A stretch of 64,000 nt of DNA from IMG/VR virus record IMGVR_UViG_2681813318_000003; one strand, written 5' to 3'. Below, one piece after another: positions 4,301-64,000 of the stretch. Under the pieces are notes generated by a model that made no database searches, was not told the origin of the DNA, and worked only from the letters and a program-made list of their open reading frames with translations. The position numbers and the translations under genes are program-made. How positions within the stretch are numbered: the first letter of the stretch is position 1; each line of letters opens with the position of its first letter. The DNA is from a virus. Its lineage: Duplodnaviria; Heunggongvirae; Uroviricota; Caudoviricetes.

Positions 4301-4489
4301 TCAGAAATAACCAAGTACCGAACCAACTGGAAAAACAAAAATCCCAACTACACGAGCCAAGGTCATGCCAGCCTGAAACTGGAGATCACCAGAGCAAACA
4401 AGTTTTATAATGTTCGATACCCAACCGGCGGCCATGAGGGCCAGAATTGCCAGCCAAATTTTTCCAAAGTGATTTGAAAACCAGTTCAT
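4301..4489 (-). CDS. small membrane protein
   Basis: 62 aa with two hydrophobic segments. Confidence 0.4.
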   Translation of the reverse strand: MNWFSNHFGKIWLAILALMAAGWVSNIIKLVCSGDLQFQAGMTLARVVGIFVFPVGSVLGYF

Positions 4490-4498
4490 ACAACCGCC

Positions 4499-4993
4499 TT
4501 AGTCACAACATGATCCTGAGTAACTGGATGAACTTGAGGTATCGCATCCACCGTCATCCCATCCAGAGTGACAGGACGCTCTACTGGAGTGGTGGTAATT
4601 GTCGTCGACGGAGGTGTGGTGATGGATGAATCCGGCATCAAAAGGCTCTGGCCGGCTGGAACAGCTACCGTCGCCAGTGAAACTATAATGAGAACGTAGG
4701 CCATTGGTTTCAGCCTCTTTCTTTGAAAATTTTCCATTCGAACTGTCCTTGTTGTTTTTCTCCTTCACTAAAGGCCGTGCATTTTTCGCTTGGTGTGAAG
4801 AACCAGAGGTAACAATCGCCCCCACGTTCGCAACAACTGACGCTTGCTTATCTAAACGTTCATTCAGCAACCGAACGGTAGTCTCCAGTTCATCAAGACG
4901 TGACAGAACACGACCGCTAAATAATTCGGCCAAAATTTGACGTAGTGAACGAGGACGTTTAGTTGCAGAAGTGAAATAGGTTTGACGTGCCAT
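4499..4993 (-). CDS. hypothetical protein; 3' half overlaps an alternative frame (4486..4737) that encodes a signal or TM segment
   Basis: N-terminal ~80 aa look protein-like; C-terminal part is low complexity while the other frame encodes MAYVLIIVSLATVAV followed by a Thr/Pro-rich tail. Confidence 0.35.
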   Translation of the reverse strand: MARQTYFTSATKRPRSLRQILAELFSGRVLSRLDELETTVRLLNERLDKQASVVANVGAIVTSGSSHQAKNARPLVKEKNNKDSSNGKFSKKEAETNGLRSHYSFTGDGSCSSRPEPFDAGFIHHHTSVDDNYHHSSRASCHSGWDDGGCDTSSSSSYSGSCCD

Positions 4994-5138
4994 GTGGACT
5001 CCATCCAGTGTCAGAAAGAGTTGCGGCTGGCGATTGCCAGCCGCCTTTCTCGTTCCATCCTGGAACTGTGTCTTACCGACACATTGTCATCCTGACGCCG
5101 ATAAGATACATGATTTAATATGATAGGTAAACACTTAC

Positions 5139-5732
5139 TTACCACTTGTTGTAAATAAAACCAATGTCTTTCTTGTGAGGCGTATCGGCTGCGGAAAAAG
5201 CTGCGATCTTCGCGAGTCGATCACATATTTCATTTTCACGATGCCCGGCGTGACCTTTAACCCACTTCCAGCGAACATTATGTCGACTTGCGGCCTCATC
5301 CAGACGTTTCCACAGATCAACATTCTTTACCGGTTTTTTATCAGAAGTCATCCATCCATTACGTTTCCACCATTTCATCCACTGTGTCATGCCGTTTTTC
5401 AGATACTGGCTATCAGAGTACAAAATAACGTTGCATGGATATTTCAAACGCTCCAGCCCGATAAGTGCGCCCATCATCTCCATGCGGTTATTGGTGGTGC
5501 TATGAAAACCATCTGAGAACTCGCGTTCCTCACCACGATACTGGAGAACGATACCGTAACCGCCCGGGCCACCCGGATTTTTAAGGCAAGAGCCATCACT
5601 AAAGATTTTCACGGTTTTGAGCTGGGGATTGAACTCTACGACAGGCGTTGTGGGATTGGTGCGGGGAGAATTTTTGTTTTTGTCTTTTTTGCGAGTTTTT
5701 GCTTGCGATCGGGCTGGTGTCTTCGTCGTCAT
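5139..5732 (-). CDS. rnhA: ribonuclease H
   Basis: RNase HI-like C-terminal region (FSDGSC...GYG..., ...VKGHAGH.ENE.CD.LA); start moved to ATG 5730-5732, preceded by AGGAG. Confidence 0.85.
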
Positions 5733-8319: not shown

Positions 8320-8479
8320 GTAAGTCTCCTTCTGTTTAGTTGCATTTGCGTTTCGATGGCTACATTTTGACTAAACCTATCAGGCGGAAAAGTATTAAAT
8401 ACAGGCAGGAAATGATTGAAAGGCGACTGTTCTTTAAAAGAAAGCCTGCTTCAAACTCTCTTTAAAGCAGGCTTTTGTT

Positions 8480-9037
8480 TTACACAATTTCAGAGGGTAA
8501 TTTAAAAAATCCGTATTTATTACGTGCCTTAAAGAAGCATTGCATCATTAAGTTTGTGTCATATAAGGCACTATGTGCTTTGGCATGATCGTATATAAAG
8601 CCAAGAGAGAAGGCCAATTCTTCAAGGCGAGGACGTTTACCGTCTTCTGTGGCCCACAATCCCGATAACATAGTATCTATAACAGGAACTTCTGGCAGTC
8701 TTACTCCATACCCTGAAAACTCGTGTCGAATAAATGGTATATCAAACGCTTCGCCGTTATGAGCAATCCACGCACTACATGCCCCCATATAAGCGCCAAT
8801 TTCGCTGGCATGATTTGACAACAAAGGTTCAGCTGCGAGCTGTTCTAATGAAATGCCATGAACGGCTTGAGCTTTCGGATCTATGTTTCTGCGAGGGTTA
8901 AAACGCATCTCCAGACTATCAATATGTCTCTGTGTCTCCAGTTCATAGCGGGTAATTGCGATTTCAATAATTTTATGACCAGCAAGGAAATCCAGTCCCG
9001 TAGACTCGATATCGATGCCTGCAACAATCGTTGTCAT
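8480..9037 (-). CDS. DnaQ-like 3'-5' exonuclease (DEDDh family)
   Basis: Motifs DIESTGL, HNGEAFDIPF and HSALYD. Confidence 0.8.
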   Translation of the reverse strand: MTTIVAGIDIESTGLDFLAGHKIIEIAITRYELETQRHIDSLEMRFNPRRNIDPKAQAVHGISLEQLAAEPLLSNHASEIGAYMGACSAWIAHNGEAFDIPFIRHEFSGYGVRLPEVPVIDTMLSGLWATEDGKRPRLEELAFSLGFIYDHAKAHSALYDTNLMMQCFFKARNKYGFFKLPSEIV

Positions 9038-9046
9038 CAGAACTCC

Positions 9047-9466
9047 TTACAACTTCTTAGCGCCCTTAAGTAGGGCGCTACGTACAAATTGAGCCGCTTT
9101 TTTCAAAGTTTCTTCACTGGTTTCACAGACAATCGGATCTTTCCACTTACCTGACGCAGTGTTGAGAATATTGATTTGGTTGCTATCCAGACAAATAGAG
9201 ATATAAAGCACCGTGCCACCAGCCAGCATCAAATGCATAGGAAACAGAGGCTTTTTACTGTCTTCACTGAACTGAGACATGGCGATGTTAATGGCTTCAC
9301 CTACTTGTGCGCCAACAAGCCCCTGCGCAGTTTCGAATATGGCACGAATAGCCAGACGAGCCTCTCGATCGCTCATAAGCGACCGGGAATGTTCGTCCGC
9401 TACACGAATCAAAGCCTCTGTTGTTTTCCGATCCAGTTCATCTTCAAGCAACATTTCACTAAACAT
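9047..9466 (-). CDS. hypothetical protein
   Basis: 139-aa ORF in operon context. Confidence 0.5.
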   Translation of the reverse strand: MFSEMLLEDELDRKTTEALIRVADEHSRSLMSDREARLAIRAIFETAQGLVGAQVGEAINIAMSQFSEDSKKPLFPMHLMLAGGTVLYISICLDSNQINILNTASGKWKDPIVCETSEETLKKAAQFVRSALLKGAKKL

Positions 9467-26447: not shown

Positions 26448-27278
26448 TTATTTCACTGTAATGAAAGGAGTGTTAGCCCCTTGAGTCATGTACTGCGGTA
26501 ACTGGCCATTCCATTTATTGATGGCTTCCAGTTCCATAACGTTCGGGTTTTGACGCAGAGCTTCACCGCGCAGACGAATGGCGTCTGCTTCTGCTTGCGC
26601 ACGAGCACGGATAGCATCAGCTTCACCATTAGCCTGTTCACGTAGCATATTCGCCTCAGCTTTACGTTGTTCAACTTCCTGCTGACGTTGCAGAGTACGC
26701 TGGTTAGCCGTTACTTTGGCGTTAATAGATTCAATGACAGTTTTTGGGTAATCAGGCTTTCCAACCCATGACAGGCTCAGTACCTCAATACCAACCGGAG
26801 ACATCTCTTTCTGAATATCTTTCAGTGCGTTGTCCAGCAATTGTGCCTTACCACCGTCGATAAATGAGTCAGTGGTCATACGGCTGGCCAAACGGTTTAG
26901 AGAGTCGGCAATTTTCTGACGCAGATCTGATTCGGTGATATCGTCTACGCCTTTGCGATAGGTCTGGAACACCGTCGTTACCTTGTCACGATTAACCAGA
27001 TACGCAACGCCAATTTTGTGACCAATAGCAGTACCGTCACTCATCTGGAATGTGAACGGCTCGTCGTAGGTCTTCATTTGTTTGAAGGTCGGGAATACGT
27101 AAAGTTCGGTGTTAAGACCTGTCCATTGGCGACCAACGCCAACCACTTCACCAATCCCTTTGTCTTCACCTAATTTGTTTACTTTGATGCCAACGTATCC
27201 AGGCTCCACGCGATCGCAGCCAGTAAGACCCATTGTGCAAATAGCCGCCAGAGCAACTGCAAGTAAACCTTTCTTCAT
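26448..27278 (-). CDS. SPFH (band 7, stomatin/prohibitin-like) domain lipoprotein
   Basis: Lipobox LTGC; SPFH-like core followed by an Ala/Glu/Arg-rich coiled-coil. Confidence 0.7.
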   Translation of the reverse strand: MKKGLLAVALAAICTMGLTGCDRVEPGYVGIKVNKLGEDKGIGEVVGVGRQWTGLNTELYVFPTFKQMKTYDEPFTFQMSDGTAIGHKIGVAYLVNRDKVTTVFQTYRKGVDDITESDLRQKIADSLNRLASRMTTDSFIDGGKAQLLDNALKDIQKEMSPVGIEVLSLSWVGKPDYPKTVIESINAKVTANQRTLQRQQEVEQRKAEANMLREQANGEADAIRARAQAEADAIRLRGEALRQNPNVMELEAINKWNGQLPQYMTQGANTPFITVK

Positions 27279-49043: not shown

Positions 49044-49457
49044 TTAATGAGCTACAGCCTCACTGTTGCACATCTTTCTGTAGACCTGCTTATAACGCTG
49101 TAAGTCATGAGGATCATTAGGTGCCAACGACTTCGATAGGATTTTGTATACCACCCCTTTCGAAAACATGCCCTTTGGCTTCATTTCGAGTTCAACAACA
49201 TATGAGTGATAGCCCACGTATGCACCAAAGCCATTTTTGGCGTTCAATTCTCCGCACACAAAGCCTGTCACACTTCCATCGTCATGATCAGTCCTGACAA
49301 ACTTATCTTTCCTAAACATCACCGACGTGGGATCTTTCATATCATCCGCAATTGCTTGTTGGCCCAGAGCAATAGCCTTCTCGTCTGTAGGCTTACACCC
49401 CACTAAAGCAAACAAAGACAATAAAGCTCCTGTTAAAATCAGCTTATTTTTGCTCAT
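49044..49457 (-). CDS. lipoprotein of unknown function
   Basis: Signal peptide with lipobox LVGC; 137 aa. Confidence 0.6.
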   Translation of the reverse strand: MSKNKLILTGALLSLFALVGCKPTDEKAIALGQQAIADDMKDPTSVMFRKDKFVRTDHDDGSVTGFVCGELNAKNGFGAYVGYHSYVVELEMKPKGMFSKGVVYKILSKSLAPNDPHDLQRYKQVYRKMCNSEAVAH

Positions 49458-56798: not shown

Positions 56799-57572
56799 TT
56801 ATTGATTCATAGATCGTTTACTCAGAATGTTCACTATATGAGTACAAGCACCTGGGGTGAGATTGATTTTATTAGTCCCCCACTCTTCACGTCTTCGCAT
56901 CTGGCCTCCGTCAGACTTACCGATATCCCACGGAATAAAACCACTTACGCCACAGGCATCCTCACCCAATTCCTCTATAAAATTTTCGTTCTTCGTATCG
57001 TAAATTTCGACCAGTCCATGTTTGCGCATACTCACAGCCCAAAGAGTTGCGCCTTTTATCGTCTGTAACGTATCGCAAACCAAGTATTGATACTTATCTA
57101 CGAGATAAAGGTAAGCAAAACTTGCGATGCCTAATCCCATATAATCAGCATGAGTAAAAACCCCTCTAATCTGCTTGGCGCTGACTTTTACTCCAGATTT
57201 ATCCTTGATTGGAAACTCGCAGTAGGCCACGCGGAAGACTGTTTGGACTGGCTGCCCCACATGCAACTTGTAGGATTCAATTTCTGCTCCTATCTCAAGA
57301 GGTGTGTAACCAGCACGTTTGAGTCGCTTAACTTCCTGCTCTTGGTAATCAGGATCACATGACTCAAGACACTCGCCAACAATACAGCGTTCATAGGCCG
57401 AATCAACAAGCTCGTATTCGGTAAATCGAATTAGATCGAAACCTCGGGAGATAAAATAGAACTCACCGAGAGCGATAATTCTCGTCGCTCTCGGCATTTC
57501 AGACAAGACCTTGCTGTAGTCTTCTATTTCAGGGATTAATCTGTTCGCCTGACCAATTAGAGATGGTGCCAT
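56799..57572 (-). CDS. hypothetical protein, possibly acetyltransferase-like
   Basis: 257 aa; HADYMGLGIASFAY resembles a GNAT motif A; weak. Confidence 0.45.
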   Translation of the reverse strand: MAPSLIGQANRLIPEIEDYSKVLSEMPRATRIIALGEFYFISRGFDLIRFTEYELVDSAYERCIVGECLESCDPDYQEQEVKRLKRAGYTPLEIGAEIESYKLHVGQPVQTVFRVAYCEFPIKDKSGVKVSAKQIRGVFTHADYMGLGIASFAYLYLVDKYQYLVCDTLQTIKGATLWAVSMRKHGLVEIYDTKNENFIEELGEDACGVSGFIPWDIGKSDGGQMRRREEWGTNKINLTPGACTHIVNILSKRSMNQ

Positions 57573-57976
57573 GAAGTATTCTGTGCCGTTGATGGTTCCA
57601 TATCATCGATTTTACAGAATTTCTTCATAAAAGACTCTACAACTTGTTTGATTCGTGAAGAAATATCACGATCTAAACACTTCAAGTCAGGATATTGTTC
57701 AGCAACATCTAAAACAAAAGAGGTTCGTTTACCGTTAGCGACAACCTCGGCCAACGGTTTAACCAGTGACGTAGAATTAGAGACCTTTTCGGCACGCGCC
57801 ACATCGCTCTTAAAAGTGACGATGAAGTGCTGGCGGTTAGCTGATTCACGGCACAACATACGTCGCACTTCTACTGCGTCTTCACTGTTGTGAATACGCA
57901 TAGGAAAGCTGTCGATAACCGCAGTATTGGTGCGGATCGTCTGCATAGAACGCGTATTGTCATGATAATTTAGCAT
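57557..57976 (-). CDS. hypothetical protein
   Basis: 139 aa; overlaps the downstream gene by 16 nt. Confidence 0.45.
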   Translation of the reverse strand: MLNYHDNTRSMQTIRTNTAVIDSFPMRIHNSEDAVEVRRMLCRESANRQHFIVTFKSDVARAEKVSNSTSLVKPLAEVVANGKRTSFVLDVAEQYPDLKCLDRDISSRIKQVVESFMKKFCKIDDMEPSTAQNTSWHHL

Positions 57977-58185: not shown

Positions 58186-58431
58186 TCATCGACTCAGTTC
58201 AGGTGCCCCCCACTCACACAGCCTTTCACCTATCGTATTGTGGATAAGCAACTGTCGCTCCGTTTCCTCAGTCATAAAATCCTCTCTACTCACATAGATA
58301 GGATTTGCAGCATCGCAGAATAGCACGCCTGGAGCCTGCGTCTTAATCACGCACCCATTTATCAAACAGCTCGCGATGAACACCAGAGGCATCTTTTTGC
58401 CGCACTTCATTAACCGTTTCATTTTTGACAT
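58186..58431 (-). CDS. putative outer-membrane spanin-like lipoprotein (Rz1-like), start uncertain
   Basis: Alternate-frame ORF starting inside the Rz-like gene and extending past it; lipobox-like FIASC. Confidence 0.35.
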   Translation of the reverse strand: MSKMKRLMKCGKKMPLVFIASCLINGCVIKTQAPGVLFCDAANPIYVSREDFMTEETERQLLIHNTIGERLCEWGAPELSR

Positions 58432-58594
58432 CCACTGTGCTTTGAAGTCGTTTTCTGTCTTCCTGTTTTGCCTTCTCTTCCATTGCTCGTCGCGCCGCAT
58501 TCCCGCCCATCGTGTAAGCGCCGACCAGAACGAAAAGAACGGCAGCCAGCGTAATCAAAGCAACTTTTAGCTTTGTCATCAGGCTGCCTAGCAT
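58343..58594 (-). CDS. putative inner-membrane spanin-like protein (Rz-like)
   Basis: N-terminal TM followed by a charged helical domain; overlapped by the lipoprotein ORF. Confidence 0.4.
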   Translation of the reverse strand: MLGSLMTKLKVALITLAAVLFVLVGAYTMGGNAARRAMEEKAKQEDRKRLQSTVDVKNETVNEVRQKDASGVHRELFDKWVRD

Positions 58595-59637: not shown

Positions 59638-59706
59638 GAAAAGTCAAATCGGGATGGCGGATTTATATCACATTTCACCCTTTTGTTGTAGGTGTGTGCT
59701 TACCTA

Positions 59707-59937
59707 TCATTCAGCATTGCAACGGACTGATGAGAAAGCACCTACTCCAACCCATCGCCAGTTATAGATGCTACCCGCTTTGTATAAGGTATAGTCGTTC
59801 ACTTTTTTAACAGCATATATGGGTATGACTGTCTCCTGTCCACCAATGCTAGCCTCACCATAACATATAGGTGTCGGCAATTTCTGGCAGCCAGTAAGAG
59901 AGAGAACAACAGCTATTGTTAGAAATAATCTTTTCAT
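59707..59937 (-). CDS. small lipoprotein
   Basis: Lipobox LSLTGC; 76-aa precursor; directly downstream of the tail-fibre genes. Confidence 0.6.
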   Translation of the reverse strand: MKRLFLTIAVVLSLTGCQKLPTPICYGEASIGGQETVIPIYAVKKVNDYTLYKAGSIYNWRWVGVGAFSSVRCNAE

Positions 59938-59947
59938 CGTTTACTCA

Positions 59948-60556
59948 TCAGTTATACAGATTTCTATTTATTACCGGTACTCTGCCATTTACACTAAAAC
60001 TATGGCCGCCATTAAGTTGGTTTACGAATATAGAGCTAACAGTATTTCCATATGCCGCATATCCATAAACCATTGTCATGGCCCCGCCCGGTACTGGAAC
60101 CGCGAACACATTTGCATATGTTGGGATTATCGCTGGCGGGTAATCAAAAACATGCCCTCCAGAACTGTTCCACTCCGTATTATTAAGAAAGGTAAATGAA
60201 AGTGGGATATTTGCCGTATTATAGATTTCCTCCCCTTGTGCATTGAAAAAACTCATGCCCCAAGTTTCTTTTTTGGCTATACCTTTCGAAAATACGTATA
60301 TCGTGGCACTAGAGTCGCTACCCTGACCTCCGAAACTGTAAATCACCTGGTTGTTACGCACTATTCTGTTGGCTATTAATGAAACAGCTTTCGAATAGGC
60401 AACAAAAATCATCGGTGAACGATCTGGAGATATTTGGGTGTTAAACTCTGTCCCGCCAGACAAAGAAACAACCTGCTTTCTCTGAAAAACGATAGGAGAC
60501 AAAGAAGGAGACATCCAGACCTTCCCGTCAGATCGATATATCTTGCTTCCGTACAT
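59948..60556 (-). CDS. hypothetical protein (tail-fibre-associated)
   Basis: 202-aa ORF, Gly/Ser/Asn-rich. Confidence 0.5.
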   Translation of the reverse strand: MYGSKIYRSDGKVWMSPSLSPIVFQRKQVVSLSGGTEFNTQISPDRSPMIFVAYSKAVSLIANRIVRNNQVIYSFGGQGSDSSATIYVFSKGIAKKETWGMSFFNAQGEEIYNTANIPLSFTFLNNTEWNSSGGHVFDYPPAIIPTYANVFAVPVPGGAMTMVYGYAAYGNTVSSIFVNQLNGGHSFSVNGRVPVINRNLYN

Positions 60557-60810
60557 TATTTTTGAAAAACCAATATGTTTAAATTGCCACTAGCTCCAGA
60601 CCATGAAATGGTATTTCCAGAAACCGTAAGACTTGTGTATTTCCCATTGGTTACGTCCATTATGTAATAGTCGATTCCCAATCCCGCCTCAACCTCATAT
60701 GTTCTACTTCCAGAACCAGAGGGAGTAAAATAATCGAGGTAATAAACAGGGGCCAACGCATCGACCATCTCCTGTCTTGATGGCGACCATACCTGTGCAC
60801 CATAGCTCAT
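60556..60810 (-). CDS. hypothetical protein (tail-fibre-associated)
   Basis: 84-aa ORF translationally coupled to the next gene. Confidence 0.45.
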   Translation of the reverse strand: MSYGAQVWSPSRQEMVDALAPVYYLDYFTPSGSGSRTYEVEAGLGIDYYIMDVTNGKYTSLTVSGNTISWSGASGNLNILVFQK

Positions 60811-60870
60811 AAATATATCCTTATACTTTTAAGCAGGGGCTGGTTTAGTTCCAGCCCCGATTGAAGTTGT

Positions 60871-63800
60871 TTATTCTTTAGGTGAATTTAACTTCGTTTC
60901 AAGCTCCTCAACCCTTTTGGTCAATTGCTGAATATGATGAATGAGTGGTACAACCAAACGCTCATACATCACCCCTTCAGCGACCATACCATTTGAGGAA
61001 ATATCTTCTGGAGAATCATTATTTGTTGGTTCACGCCAATGGACATATTGCGGGGCAATCTCACCTACCTCTTCAGCAATAAGGCCGTAATACCCCCAAT
61101 CCTTTCGGTCACCTCGACAAATTGAACGATACCAAACAGGTCTTAATGACAAAAGTTCATCAGCATATCGATCTTGTAATGTTTCAATATCCTTTTTATA
61201 GCGCCTTGAAGATGTTGAACGCCAAACTGTATTGATACCTGGGTTTGGATCAATGTACATATTGGCACCGCTAGTAGTTGTGCCAATATCCCATATAGCA
61301 AACCCTCCACTACCGCCTGATTTGACAACCAGTGTTTCAGCAATAATATCCAGGTTGCCACTATAGCCTGTCAGTGATGATCTGCTTGCATAGGAACTTA
61401 GAAGGTTTGTTACCTCTGTTTTCGTGTAAGCATTAAGGTTAGCCGCAGTCAAAGTAATATCGGCAGAGCCATCAAACGCCACACCAGCAATTTTCCTTGC
61501 TGTCTGCAATTTTGTGGCTGTTGCGGCATTACCAGTAGTATTCTGATTACCGGTTGTATTCACACCAGGGATTGAATCCTTAGCAGTATATACCTGCGCC
61601 CACGCTGACCATGCCGCATCTGTGGTATCTCTTCGTGAGCGAATGAAAACTGGCGCATGTGCACCGCTCGTACCACTCCAGCCAATAAGCAACTCGCCCT
61701 CACCAGCAGCACTCGCACCTTTCATGTGCAATACGTTGCCATACGTGGTCGGATAGCTATTGTTGTACGCCTCGTACATTTGAATGCCAGCAGTGCCTTG
61801 AGTAGAGCCGCTTAATGCCGTAACTCGGCCACGAGATACCAGTGTATTAATGTTGATATCGCCTGAGCCATCAAACTTAACACCATTGATGTTTCTCGCT
61901 GTTTGCAACTTCGTAGCTGTTGAAGCATTACCGTTCAAACTACCATTTACGCCACCAGTCACATTTAGTCCATTACCAATTGATACCGCACCGCTGGTAT
62001 TATTAATTGTAATAGGTCGCAAACCGTTCCATGAACCTAATGTGTCTCCTGATGCTGTTAGCATGAAATATGTGTTCGATCCATCATTACGGATAAAGAA
62101 CCCAAAGCTACCGTAAGCAATGCGGAAACCATTTGCATATTTTGAAATGATCTCACCAGAAGACGTTAATCCGCCAGTTAACGCTCCTCCAGATAGTGGT
62201 AAAGCTCCGACATCAGCCGCAGTAGGCTTGTTTTTAGTGTTATACGCTCTGCGCCATCCTGGTGAATAGCTCGTCCCGTTAAATACATAGATAAACTCCG
62301 CATTAGTGAGAGCACCAGAGACACTCGTCGTTGTGGCCGTTGTTATACGGATCGTATAATTGTTTGAGCTACTACCGTTATTAAATACCTCTATAACAGC
62401 TCCTGCTAATGGAATAACGCCACAACCAGTTTCACTATTTGGTATGGTTGCACTATTGGCATAGGCCCACGCACATCGAGCAATCCATGACTTTGTGTTA
62501 AATGCTCCATTATTTTGCAATAACGTCACTAACTGTGCTGTTGTTATTGCTCCGCCATTACTTCCTGTAGTTAACCAACCAGTAGGAGATGCCGGGCAAC
62601 CTATATTTGCTGGCGACAAGGAAATATTTGCCGAGCCGTCAAACGACACCCCATTGATAGTACGCGCAGTCTGCAACTTCGTAGCAGTAGCCGCGTTGCC
62701 CGTTGTATTCTGATTACCAGTCGTATTAACACCTGGCAAATTAATATTCGCAGTACCATCAAAGCTCACGCCGCCGATAGTTCTTGCCGTCTGAAGTTTT
62801 GTAGCAGTTGCAGCATTACCAGTGGTGTTCTGATTACCCGTAGTATTTACACCTGGAAGGTTGATATTTGCAGAACCGTCGAAACCAACTCCACCGATAG
62901 ATCTTGCCGTCTGCAATTTCGTTGCTGTACTTGCATTACCATTTAATGTTCCGGTGATCCCACCAGTAACAGACAACGGACCTGAAACTGTTCCTCCGGT
63001 TGTTGGCAGTGCTCCAATATCTAACGGCGTCGGTTTCTGATGTGTGCTATACATCGTATAAACAACACCATCGGTAACGCTGGAAGGCTTACTAGCTGAA
63101 TATGTTGGCGATGTATAAATAGAAACTGTCGCATTTGCAGTACAATCCCAATGGATATTTACACGAGTCGCATAATTGCCAATCTCAACGTAAATATCAT
63201 ATGTATCGCCGGATGTGTTGATCCAGGCGAAATTCGTTAATCCGACAGCTGTACGCTTCCACAAAGCACCTGTAATCCCTTTGGGGTTTCCATTGCCTGC
63301 TCGTAGAACCAGTTCTGAAATGCCTGCCTGATGTGGGGAGCCGACGTTGTAACCAGCGCCACCAATCAATGCGATGTAAACGATGGAACTCGCTTGTGGC
63401 ATTGTAACAGTAGCCAGTTTGAACCACCCGGCCCCGCCAGAGAAAGACATCGTTATTGAATTTAAAGTACCAATATCTTTCGGCGTTAATGTGATATCCG
63501 CAGTCAGTGCTTTCCCGTTAATTTTTCGGTTAGATGGCACCCTGCTGTTCGCATTGTCATTGACTACTTTAACTGCTTTTGGCGTTGCGGCCAGCGATTC
63601 ACTGGTGCTGTCGACAGCACTGCTAAGTTTCACAACACCTTTAGTTGTAAGGCTTGCGTCTTCCATCGCAACTGCACCGGCAATCTCTTCAGCACGATCA
63701 GCAGCAGCTTCCGCACGGGTCGCAGCGGATTCAGCAGCAGTTTTGCTCTGAGATGCTGCCGTCGCACTGCCTGCCGCCTCTGTTGCTTTCGTGGATGCCG

Positions 63801-64000
63801 TCGTGGCGCTGCCCTTCGCTGCTGACGCCTGTCTGGTCGCCTCATCTTTTGAAGCAGACGCAGATGATGCCGATGACGCTGCCGAACTGGCGGATGATGC
63901 GGCTGCCGTTTTTGAGGATTCTGCACGGGTTTCCGACGCTTTCGCGTTCGTTTCGGATGTCTTCGCTGCGGAAGCAGACCTCGCTGCTGCGCTGGCCTGT
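60871..64000 (-). CDS. tail fibre protein with C-terminal intramolecular chaperone (peptidase S74-like) domain; partial, N-terminus beyond window end
   Basis: Frame stays open upstream of the track ATG at 63666 through an Ala/Ser-rich region to position 64000; internal ~40-aa repeats (GNAATATKLQTAR...FDGSANI); C-terminal ...SSRRYKKDIETL... chaperone-like domain. Confidence 0.8.
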   Translation of the reverse strand, partial: QASAAARSASAAKTSETNAKASETRAESSKTAAASSASSAASSASSASASKDEATRQASAAKGSATTASTKATEAAGSATAASQSKTAAESAATRAEAAADRAEEIAGAVAMEDASLTTKGVVKLSSAVDSTSESLAATPKAVKVVNDNANSRVPSNRKINGKALTADITLTPKDIGTLNSITMSFSGGAGWFKLATVTMPQASSIVYIALIGGAGYNVGSPHQAGISELVLRAGNGNPKGITGALWKRTAVGLTNFAWINTSGDTYDIYVEIGNYATRVNIHWDCTANATVSIYTSPTYSASKPSSVTDGVVYTMYSTHQKPTPLDIGALPTTGGTVSGPLSVTGGITGTLNGNASTATKLQTARSIGGVGFDGSANINLPGVNTTGNQNTTGNAATATKLQTARTIGGVSFDGTANINLPGVNTTGNQNTTGNAATATKLQTARTINGVSFDGSANISLSPANIGCPASPTGWLTTGSNGGAITTAQLVTLLQNNGAFNTKSWIARCAWAYANSATIPNSETGCGVIPLAGAVIEVFNNGSSSNNYTIRITTATTTSVSGALTNAEFIYVFNGTSYSPGWRRAYNTKNKPTAADVGALPLSGGALTGGLTSSGEIISKYANGFRIAYGSFGFFIRNDGSNTYFMLTASGDTLGSWNGLRPITINNTSGAVSIGNGLNVTGGVNGSLNGNASTATKLQTARNINGVKFDGSGDININTLVSRGRVTALSGSTQGTAGIQMYEAYNNSYPTTYGNVLHMKGASAAGEGELLIGWSGTSGAHAPVFIRSRRDTTDAAWSAWAQVYTAKDSIPGVNTTGNQNTTGNAATATKLQTARKIAGVAFDGSADITLTAANLNAYTKTEVTNLLSSYASRSSLTGYSGNLDIIAETLVVKSGGSGGFAIWDIGTTTSGANMYIDPNPGINTVWRSTSSRRYKKDIETLQDRYADELLSLRPVWYRSICRGDRKDWGYYGLIAEEVGEIAPQYVHWREPTNNDSPEDISSNGMVAEGVMYERLVVPLIHHIQQLTKRVEELETKLNSPKE

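Follow-up and report, generated by a model that had tools for sequence, protein, structure and literature searches.

A Cor-family lipoprotein gene with a probable role in superinfection exclusion in an SSU5-like phage-plasmid of Escherichia coli

Phages that depend on FhuA are excluded by phage-encoded Cor proteins, which abolish the function of this receptor (bioRxiv 10.64898/2026.03.26.714494, citing Uc-Mass 2004 and Hernandez-Sanchez 2008), and both effects are known for the Cors of phi80, N15, HK022, mEp167 and T1 (10.64898/2026.03.26.714494; PMC13164509). Cor and Llp of phage T5 have a common architecture and an intramolecular disulfide (PMC9586334; bioRxiv 10.64898/2026.03.26.714494; PMC13164509); Llp works allosterically from the periplasmic face, and Cor "likely functions in a similar way" (PMC9586334). 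The cor cassette is called a hallmark of FhuA-dependent phages in PMC13164509, which cites Wietzorrek 2006 on this point, and in its extended form it tracks FhuA use in T1, HK022, N15, ES18, phi80 and BASEL phages (PMC13164509). Among Enterobacteriaceae, SSU5-like phage-plasmids occur commonly, and resistance genes are found on some of them; their host-range determinants have been described as poorly understood (PMC9600943). Here, we describe a cor gene in the IMG/VR virus record IMGVR_UViG_2681813318_000003, a stretch of 64,000 nucleotides (nt) that we refer to as the window and that is an SSU5-like E. coli phage-plasmid. We suggest that this gene very probably encodes a superinfection-exclusion lipoprotein, which would block the cognate receptor as part of a module of three host-recognition genes.

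The cor gene occupies positions 59707..59937 on the minus strand (stop codon 59707-59709) and encodes the 76-residue precursor MKRLFLTIAVVLSLTGCQKLPTPICYGEASIGGQETVIPIYAVKKVNDYTLYKAGSIYNWRWVGVGAFSSVRCNAE; the assignment is supported by the listing of open reading frames (ORFs), PHROG, NCBIfam, the RefSeq name and an exact protein match at NCBI. An earlier note, made from the letters of the DNA, had placed a 76-residue lipoprotein precursor here without naming the strand, and the ORF listing and the lipobox confirm it. Two family profiles recognise the protein from end to end. With phrog_1119 (PHROG, "Cor superinfection exclusion protein"), residues 1-75 align to positions 1-76 of the 78-position profile at E 4.5e-30; with NF047972 (an NCBIfam equivalog, "phage exclusion lipoprotein Cor"), residues 1-74 align to positions 1-77, again of 78, and the score is 80.1 bits where 31 is the cut-off. 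Because of these two profile matches, the window protein is, as judged from its sequence, a true homologue of Cor and not a mere analogue. Since the exact protein is in addition present in NCBI under the name "phage exclusion lipoprotein Cor", the gene is not a chance ORF. RefSeq names the same gene in E. coli plasmids "cor: phage exclusion lipoprotein Cor", and variants differing by one or two residues occur on hundreds of contigs.

Identity to the characterised Cors of HK022, N15 and phi80 is 43-49%, or 43-47% over the mature part (46-47% for N15 and HK022). A tblastn search with Cor returned a homologue in 173 phage records, every one below 60% identity, with SSU5 (59%) and Stx2-converting phage 86 (Stx2-86; 58%) as the best matches, followed by HK022 (47%), N15 (42%), phi80 (41%) and T1-like phages (~28-35%). 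With 49 clusters (50% identity) among 1.84 billion representatives, the family is small. A single-sequence search of a set of 5.8 billion proteins gave just three fragments, and a profile query was needed there. Across an alignment of 80 members, C17, C25, G32, G55 and C73 are invariant, and all five are present in the window Cor. The nearly invariant G33, A54, V63 and F68 are present as well, and a fifth such position, F58 in most members, is Ile.

The N-terminus of Cor consists of MKRLFLTIAVVLSLTG followed by Cys17, that is, a basic n-region (MKR), a hydrophobic core and the canonical lipobox L-T-G-C, with C as residue 17. The putative lipoprotein signal peptide (residues 1-16) and the codon of the lipidated cysteine (59887-59889) thus span 59887..59937 on the minus strand. 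This feature was read from the sequence and is consistent with a lipobox regular expression, with the invariance of Cys17 and with a match of residues 1-18 to Pfam LPAM_1 at 17.3 bits, under the threshold of 20. Applied to six-frame ORFs of at least 40 residues across the window, the regular expression matched three ORFs, one of which is Cor. Lipoprotein signal peptides are also carried by two other ORFs, 49044..49457 (minus; 137 residues, beginning MSKNKLILTGALLSLFALVGC) and 26448..27278 (minus; 276 residues, beginning MKKGLLAVALAAICTMGLTGC). Export and lipidation at Cys17 are accordingly features predicted from sequence. Lipoprotein sorting depends on the residue at position +2, and since this residue is Gln and not Asp in mature Cor, the protein is expected in the outer membrane. 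The mature domain (residues 18-76; 59710..59886, minus) is beta-rich and holds C25 and C73, which probably form a disulfide, as well as G32 and G55. An AlphaFold2 model built on the family alignment (mean predicted local distance difference test score 88.3) shows the signal peptide as a helix and, behind it, a beta domain of five strands, and the best PDB match of this predicted fold is T5 Llp in its FhuA-bound form, which suggests that Cor has an Llp-like fold. Apart from the LPAM_1 match, Pfam gave nothing for Cor, and it gave nothing for the two neighbouring proteins described below; PADLOC gave no match.

On the minus strand, the gene order is side tail fibre (ending at 60871), a gene for an 84-residue protein (60810..60556), a gene for a 202-residue protein (60556..59948), cor, holin, endolysin and Rz/Rz1. 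The position directly after tail-fibre and fibre-associated genes, on which the earlier note had built, therefore holds. The stop codon of the 84-residue gene overlaps the start of the 202-residue gene (TAATG). The 202-residue protein belongs to phrog_425 (E 4.5e-49), is a homologue of N15 gp23, T1 ST31 and SSU5_024, and is a probable tail-tip receptor-binding protein (RBP). The 84-residue protein belongs to phrog_557 (E 1.3e-24) and is a homologue of N15 gp22, T1 ST32 and SSU5_023, with 69% identity to SSU5_023 and 23-29% to the versions in N15, T1, phi80 and ES18. In related loci, the phrog_557 gene always precedes the phrog_425 gene, and the 84-residue protein is possibly an RBP adaptor or assembly partner. 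Both proteins lack a signal peptide and a transmembrane segment in their sequences.

The trio of phrog_557, phrog_425 and cor is annotated in N15 (gp22, gp23, gp24), phi80 (22, 23, cor), T1 (ST32, ST31, ST30), ES18 (30, 31, 32) and SSU5 (023, 024, 025), and in HK022 it sits in an unannotated gap. In 78 of the 80 top-ranked IMG/VR loci with a gene for a Cor relative, the three genes are adjacent on one strand, and the remaining two loci are cut by a contig end. A J-type tail-tip gene ends at most 150 nt from the first gene of the trio in 72 of these 78 loci; the five clear exceptions are the SSU5-like loci. In near-identical relatives of the window, J is followed by the side tail fibre (~1300 residues) and then by the trio; J itself falls outside the window. 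Loci at this position have been described in the BASEL phages as [quoted passage not shown], which lie directly downstream of the gpJ homologue and have the RBP gene directly upstream of the lipoprotein gene (PMC8594841). Here, the RBP-like gene for the 202-residue protein lies directly upstream of cor, and the trio follows the side fibre and not a gpJ homologue. This placement is the sole architectural oddity of the SSU5-like lineage. No paralogues of the trio were found elsewhere in the 64-kb window.

The predicted 202-residue protein appears to share the fold of a proven receptor-binding protein, the gene for which sits just upstream of that for a Rtp45-homologue exclusion lipoprotein; the Rtp45-LptDE complex has been solved (PMC12685063). 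Sequence searches of the PDB with the 84- and 202-residue proteins and with the phrog_425 profile gave no match, and no structural hits for the two neighbour proteins were reported in a 2026 paper (PMC13164509). The fold match lends modest support to the idea that phrog_425 proteins are the terminal RBPs and Cor the cognate receptor blocker, and it thereby adds, to a modest extent, to the RBP reading of the T1/N15/phi80 cassette. The role in superinfection exclusion of the Cor/Llp type that had been proposed earlier from position is thus strengthened, and the analogy has become sequence homology to Cor, with profiles, invariant residues, predicted fold and a neighbour of RBP-like fold all pointing in this direction.

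Three further observations concern the genes of the trio in other records. Firstly, the RefSeq/PGAP version of the gene at 59948..60556 has 188 codons with a start at 60514. The first 14 residues of the 202-residue version align with the conserved N-terminus of the family, in which G3, A4, I6 and G11 are nearly invariant, and in N15, T1 and phi80 an ATG overlapping the stop of the phrog_557 gene likewise starts the phrog_425 gene; the database start is probably 14 codons too short. Secondly, phage CMS-2020a has a weak tblastn match to the 202-residue protein (CP053388.1, 87095..87544; 26% over residues 1-151, E 1e-9), which lies far from the fibre locus, is without a counterpart in the window and may be a distant paralogue. 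Thirdly, in the podophage Stx2-86 (L005), cor stands behind a gp38-like adhesin gene (phrog_1121, 50% identical to SSU5_022) without its partner genes (4428..5213), and a separate phrog_557/phrog_425 pair (8441..9345) lies after a gene for a tail fibre protein weakly similar to the central tail fibre J (phrog_31, E 2.2e-25) and before lom. Because cor and the pair stand apart in this phage, the trio can be split.

The region is 92-97% identical, in parts, to Cyrano, CMS-2020a and PhiR41_1, ~83% identical to SSU5 across the lysis genes and 96-99.7% identical to E. coli plasmids of ~110 kb, and replication and partition genes (DnaB-like helicase, primase, ParA) lie nearby. In blastn comparisons with Cyrano (L001) and NZ_AP022089 (L009), which lack the cassette, the flanks are 94-97% identical up to 59708, in the cor stop codon, and from 61389, inside the fibre gene. 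The intervening block of 1.68 kb (59709..61388) comprises the fibre tip, the two partner genes and cor, and has no match in these two elements, which carry ~0.5 kb in its place; this replacement suggests that SSU5-like phage-plasmids exchange host-range genes as modules. The fibre tip, i.e. the last ~172 codons of the side tail fibre gene (60871..61388, minus), including the Peptidase_S74 intramolecular chaperone domain (~61042-61212; Pfam PF13884 at residues 819-875), belongs to the same exchangeable block as the trio. GC content is 0.40-0.42 over 59700-61400 and 0.48-0.51 in the lysis genes. The trio is carried by 66 of 5426 complete E. coli genomes, on a plasmid every time; a further 103 of the 5426 gave a hit, which among the matches listed covered just the 69 nt adjoining the holin gene. 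In the E. coli relatives L006 and L010, the cor ORF is intact, with one or two substitutions each. Between the window and SSU5, nonsynonymous divergence (pN) is 0.17-0.29 in the trio and 0.02-0.04 in holin and endolysin; the ratio of nonsynonymous to synonymous rates (dN/dS) is not computable for this pair because synonymous sites are saturated.

As for expression, 10 nt separate cor from the end of the 202-residue gene, and the holin gene lies 69 nt downstream of cor on the same strand; a scan between cor and holin predicted no terminator. Two promoter-like sites were found in the region, upstream of the 84- and the 202-residue genes, and none directly upstream of cor. Because there is no room for a promoter of its own and no terminator before holin, co-expression with the late tail and lysis genes would be expected by default. 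The simplest reading is therefore that cor would be co-transcribed with the late genes, which would fit a role in protecting infected cells and released progeny; cor may possibly also be expressed from the resident plasmid. Directly behind the stop codon of the fibre gene and ahead of the trio, a stable hairpin with an 8-bp GC stem (GGGGCUGG-N7-CCAGCCCC; 60836..60858, minus) has a folding energy of -17.3 kcal/mol (z -4.05 against shuffles). It is without a proper U-tract and was not called in the terminator scan, and it may act as a weak terminator or stabilise the RNA. In the cor region, scans for Rfam families and for repeats gave nothing relevant.

In the mechanism that we suggest, the precursor would be exported and lipidated at Cys17, as its sequence features predict. 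The beta domain of ~60 residues, probably stapled by a C25-C73 disulfide, would then bind the periplasmic side of the terminal outer-membrane receptor of the phage and lock it in a state that the RBP cannot engage, as suggested by the homology to Cor and the likeness in fold to Llp, the mechanism of which has been solved. As a result, carrier cells and cells in which the phage replicates would stop adsorbing this phage and others that use the same receptor, and progeny would not be lost on debris.

Several observations weigh against this reading. The likeness between Cor and Llp is one of predicted fold only, because a Foldseek search with the Cor model gave no significant match and because the Cor profile, run against PDB sequences, had Llp (8a60_B) on top at an E of 0.18, mostly over the signal peptide. 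Scans for promoters and terminators around cor in the window, SSU5 and N15 gave sites no more numerous than in shuffled sequence. The trio is accessory and inessential for the lineage, since close relatives without it share a J tail-tip protein that is 90-95% identical, C-terminus included. The receptor of SSU5 was reported as the lipopolysaccharide core (Kim 2014, as given in PMC4138488), and in our literature searches we found no receptor for SSU5-like phage-plasmids and no link to FhuA. The exclusion role of the clade formed by the Cors of the window, SSU5 and Stx2-86 is one predicted from homology. Finally, the allele of the 202-residue RBP-like protein is 18-21% identical to four FhuA-validated alleles, whereas these four share 33-64% identity with one another, even when phages of E. 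coli are compared with those of Salmonella.

The last point bears directly on the receptor. FhuA is the leading candidate for the target of the window Cor because every characterised Cor targets it, and we consider this assignment about evenly balanced. In our estimate, another outer-membrane protein comes next, as a tentative possibility, and the remainder falls to no exclusion function whatever. Such a different target, e.g. another TonB-dependent transporter or a porin, would be blocked by the same mechanism and recognised by the divergent 202-residue RBP-like protein; it is thus a sub-variant of the exclusion role and not an alternative to it. In its favour, the 84- and 202-residue proteins form an allele class of their own, with 18-29% identity to the alleles of N15, T1, phi80 and ES18 and 24-28% to that of Stx2-86, whereas FhuA-type alleles of E. 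coli phages are 54-76% identical among otherwise unrelated phages. The allele of ES18, which uses Salmonella FhuA, is 33-46% identical to these E. coli types, and the SSU5 allele does not group with it. Moreover, the window differs from SSU5 far more in the trio than in the lysis genes, members of the Cor/Llp superfamily are present in BtuB-dependent phages (PMC13164509), and exclusion lipoproteins for LptD exist (PMC12685063). On the other hand, all Cors tested to date act on FhuA, and unrelated RBPs can share a receptor, as T5 pb5 and the T1-type proteins both use FhuA. In a midpoint-rooted neighbour-joining tree, the window clade is bracketed by FhuA-validated Cors, with T1 on one side and HK022, phi80 and N15 on the other; over the mature part, T1 Cor, which is FhuA-specific, is 29-34% identical to the latter three, less than the window Cor is. 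The J protein gives no clue to the receptor: its C-terminus is of the T1/N15/HK022 type, and no covariation with presence of the trio was seen between cassette-plus and cassette-minus phage-plasmids, the J proteins of which are 90-95% identical.

The dispensability of the trio also raises the question of whether cor is a passenger without current function, brought in with the fibre-tip block and either unexpressed or without a matching receptor in E. coli. Cassette-less relatives are common, the GC content of the block is foreign, and no promoter-like site lies directly before cor, in scans with counts at the level of shuffled sequence. Against this, the ORF is intact with every invariant residue present, variants of one or two residues recur on hundreds of contigs, the block is found in 66 complete E. 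coli genomes, and gene order and translational coupling are kept as in functional phages; we therefore regard a silent passenger as unlikely. Lastly, it is highly improbable that cor is a lysis accessory, e.g. an o-spanin-like lipoprotein. In favour of this idea, Cor is a small outer-membrane lipoprotein, and its gene is followed after 69 nt, without a predicted terminator, by the holin, endolysin and Rz genes of the same strand. Against it, a full spanin pair already lies downstream, the cassette boundary is exactly at the cor stop and cor-less phage-plasmids retain the same lysis cluster. We thus retain the reading of Cor as a receptor-blocking exclusion lipoprotein.

An identity of Cor as the o-spanin Rz1 itself was rejected, as Cor profiles match the protein and spanin profiles do not, and a separate Rz/Rz1 pair is present. 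This spanin pair (58186..58594, minus) consists of Rz (phrog_1026, 83 residues, 58343..58594) and an embedded Rz1-like lipoprotein ORF (phrog_1275); the latter is a further small lipoprotein gene, less than 1.5 kb from cor and distinct from it. The side tail fibre ORF (60871..64000, minus) is open at the window end, and its 931 residues are therefore a minimum; it has Pfam matches to Phage_fiber_2, Gp34_trimer and Peptidase_S74 and holds four near-identical copies of NTTGNQNTTGNAATATKLQTAR. In relatives, the fibre gene is interrupted by IS2, an IS66-family element or ISEc9, or is flagged as a pseudogene without its N-terminus. On the strand opposite to the Ala/Ser-rich stretch near the N-terminus of the fibre, Rfam matches isrG weakly (63696..63920, plus; 28 bits against a gathering threshold of 100, E 1.7e-4); this match is most likely noise or a remnant of similarity to prophage fibres. 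The accessory slot between parA and the lysis genes varies: in the window (56799..57976, minus), it holds two overlapping ORFs of 257 and 139 residues, and in Cyrano (L001, 5126..5960) and NZ_AP022089 a KacT-type GNAT toxin and a DUF1778 antitoxin.

The gene itself is of little consequence: it belongs to the Cor family, is already named and annotated and sits in a mobile element of a known type, with the name cor given by the NCBI pipeline and the SSU5 orthologue labelled "Cor-like" in the deposited genome record, and nothing about it is new in kind. The trio, in turn, is probably a terminal-receptor module, made up of an RBP-like protein and its cognate blocker, that only some members of the lineage carry. 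Carriers are predicted to resist phages that use the same receptor, and possibly also colicin M and albomycin if this receptor is FhuA. We tentatively entertain the more far-reaching possibility that the receptor blocked by the Cor clade of the window, SSU5 and Stx2-86 is not FhuA, with phrog_425, a family labelled "membrane-associated protein", as the true terminal RBP of SSU5-like phage-plasmids. If so, the specificity of Cor would extend beyond FhuA, and a protein receptor would be named for phage-plasmids that are widespread as a group and in some cases bear resistance genes.

The window Cor may be compared with known exclusion systems. In LptD-targeting small siphophages, Rtp45 or Bas18_0026 accompanies the Oekolampad or Rtp RBP. 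Rtp45 did not belong to the Cor family in any search that was run, and the RBPs of these phages resemble phrog_425 in fold only, without a sequence match. Rtp45 also targets LptD by steric displacement of loops, as opposed to the allostery on TonB-dependent transporters (PMC12685063). For T5 Llp (PDB 8A60, 7QJF), the sequence similarity to the window Cor is not significant (E 0.18, 15% identity), and the T5 RBP, pb5, is unrelated to phrog_425. Within the Cor family proper, T1 (Drexlerviridae) has the same trio downstream of its tail genes; its Cor is 22-28% identical to that of the window, T1 is a virulent phage, and its cor is on the strand opposite to the two upstream genes, whereas all three are on the same strand in the window.

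The Cors of HK022, phi80, N15 and mEp167, which are temperate phages of the lambdoid and N15 types, belong to the same family (NF047972, phrog_1119) and share the length, lipobox and cysteine pair of the window Cor, and in the HK022, phi80 and N15 type of phage cor is likewise the last gene of a same-strand trio. In these phages, however, the trio lies directly behind J and not behind a side tail fibre, and their neighbouring RBP-like proteins (in HK022/N15-type phages) are 18-29% identical to those of the window. In N15 and phi80, cor is ~110 nt from the preceding gene, compared to 10 nt in the window, and N15 has a promoter-like site in this gap and a strong terminator after cor, whereas no terminator precedes holin in the window. 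Exclusion and FhuA inactivation have been shown experimentally for the HK022/N15-type Cors, and for the window Cor exclusion is predicted. The closest counterpart is found in SSU5, a phage with Salmonella as its host: it has a separate gp38-like adhesin gene (phrog_1121) between fibre and trio, whereas the window fibre ends in the Peptidase_S74 chaperone domain. SSU5_025 is nevertheless the orthologue of the window Cor, with 57-62% identity, the same short gap before the gene and the same place in the order fibre, 84-residue protein, ~190-residue protein, cor and holin.
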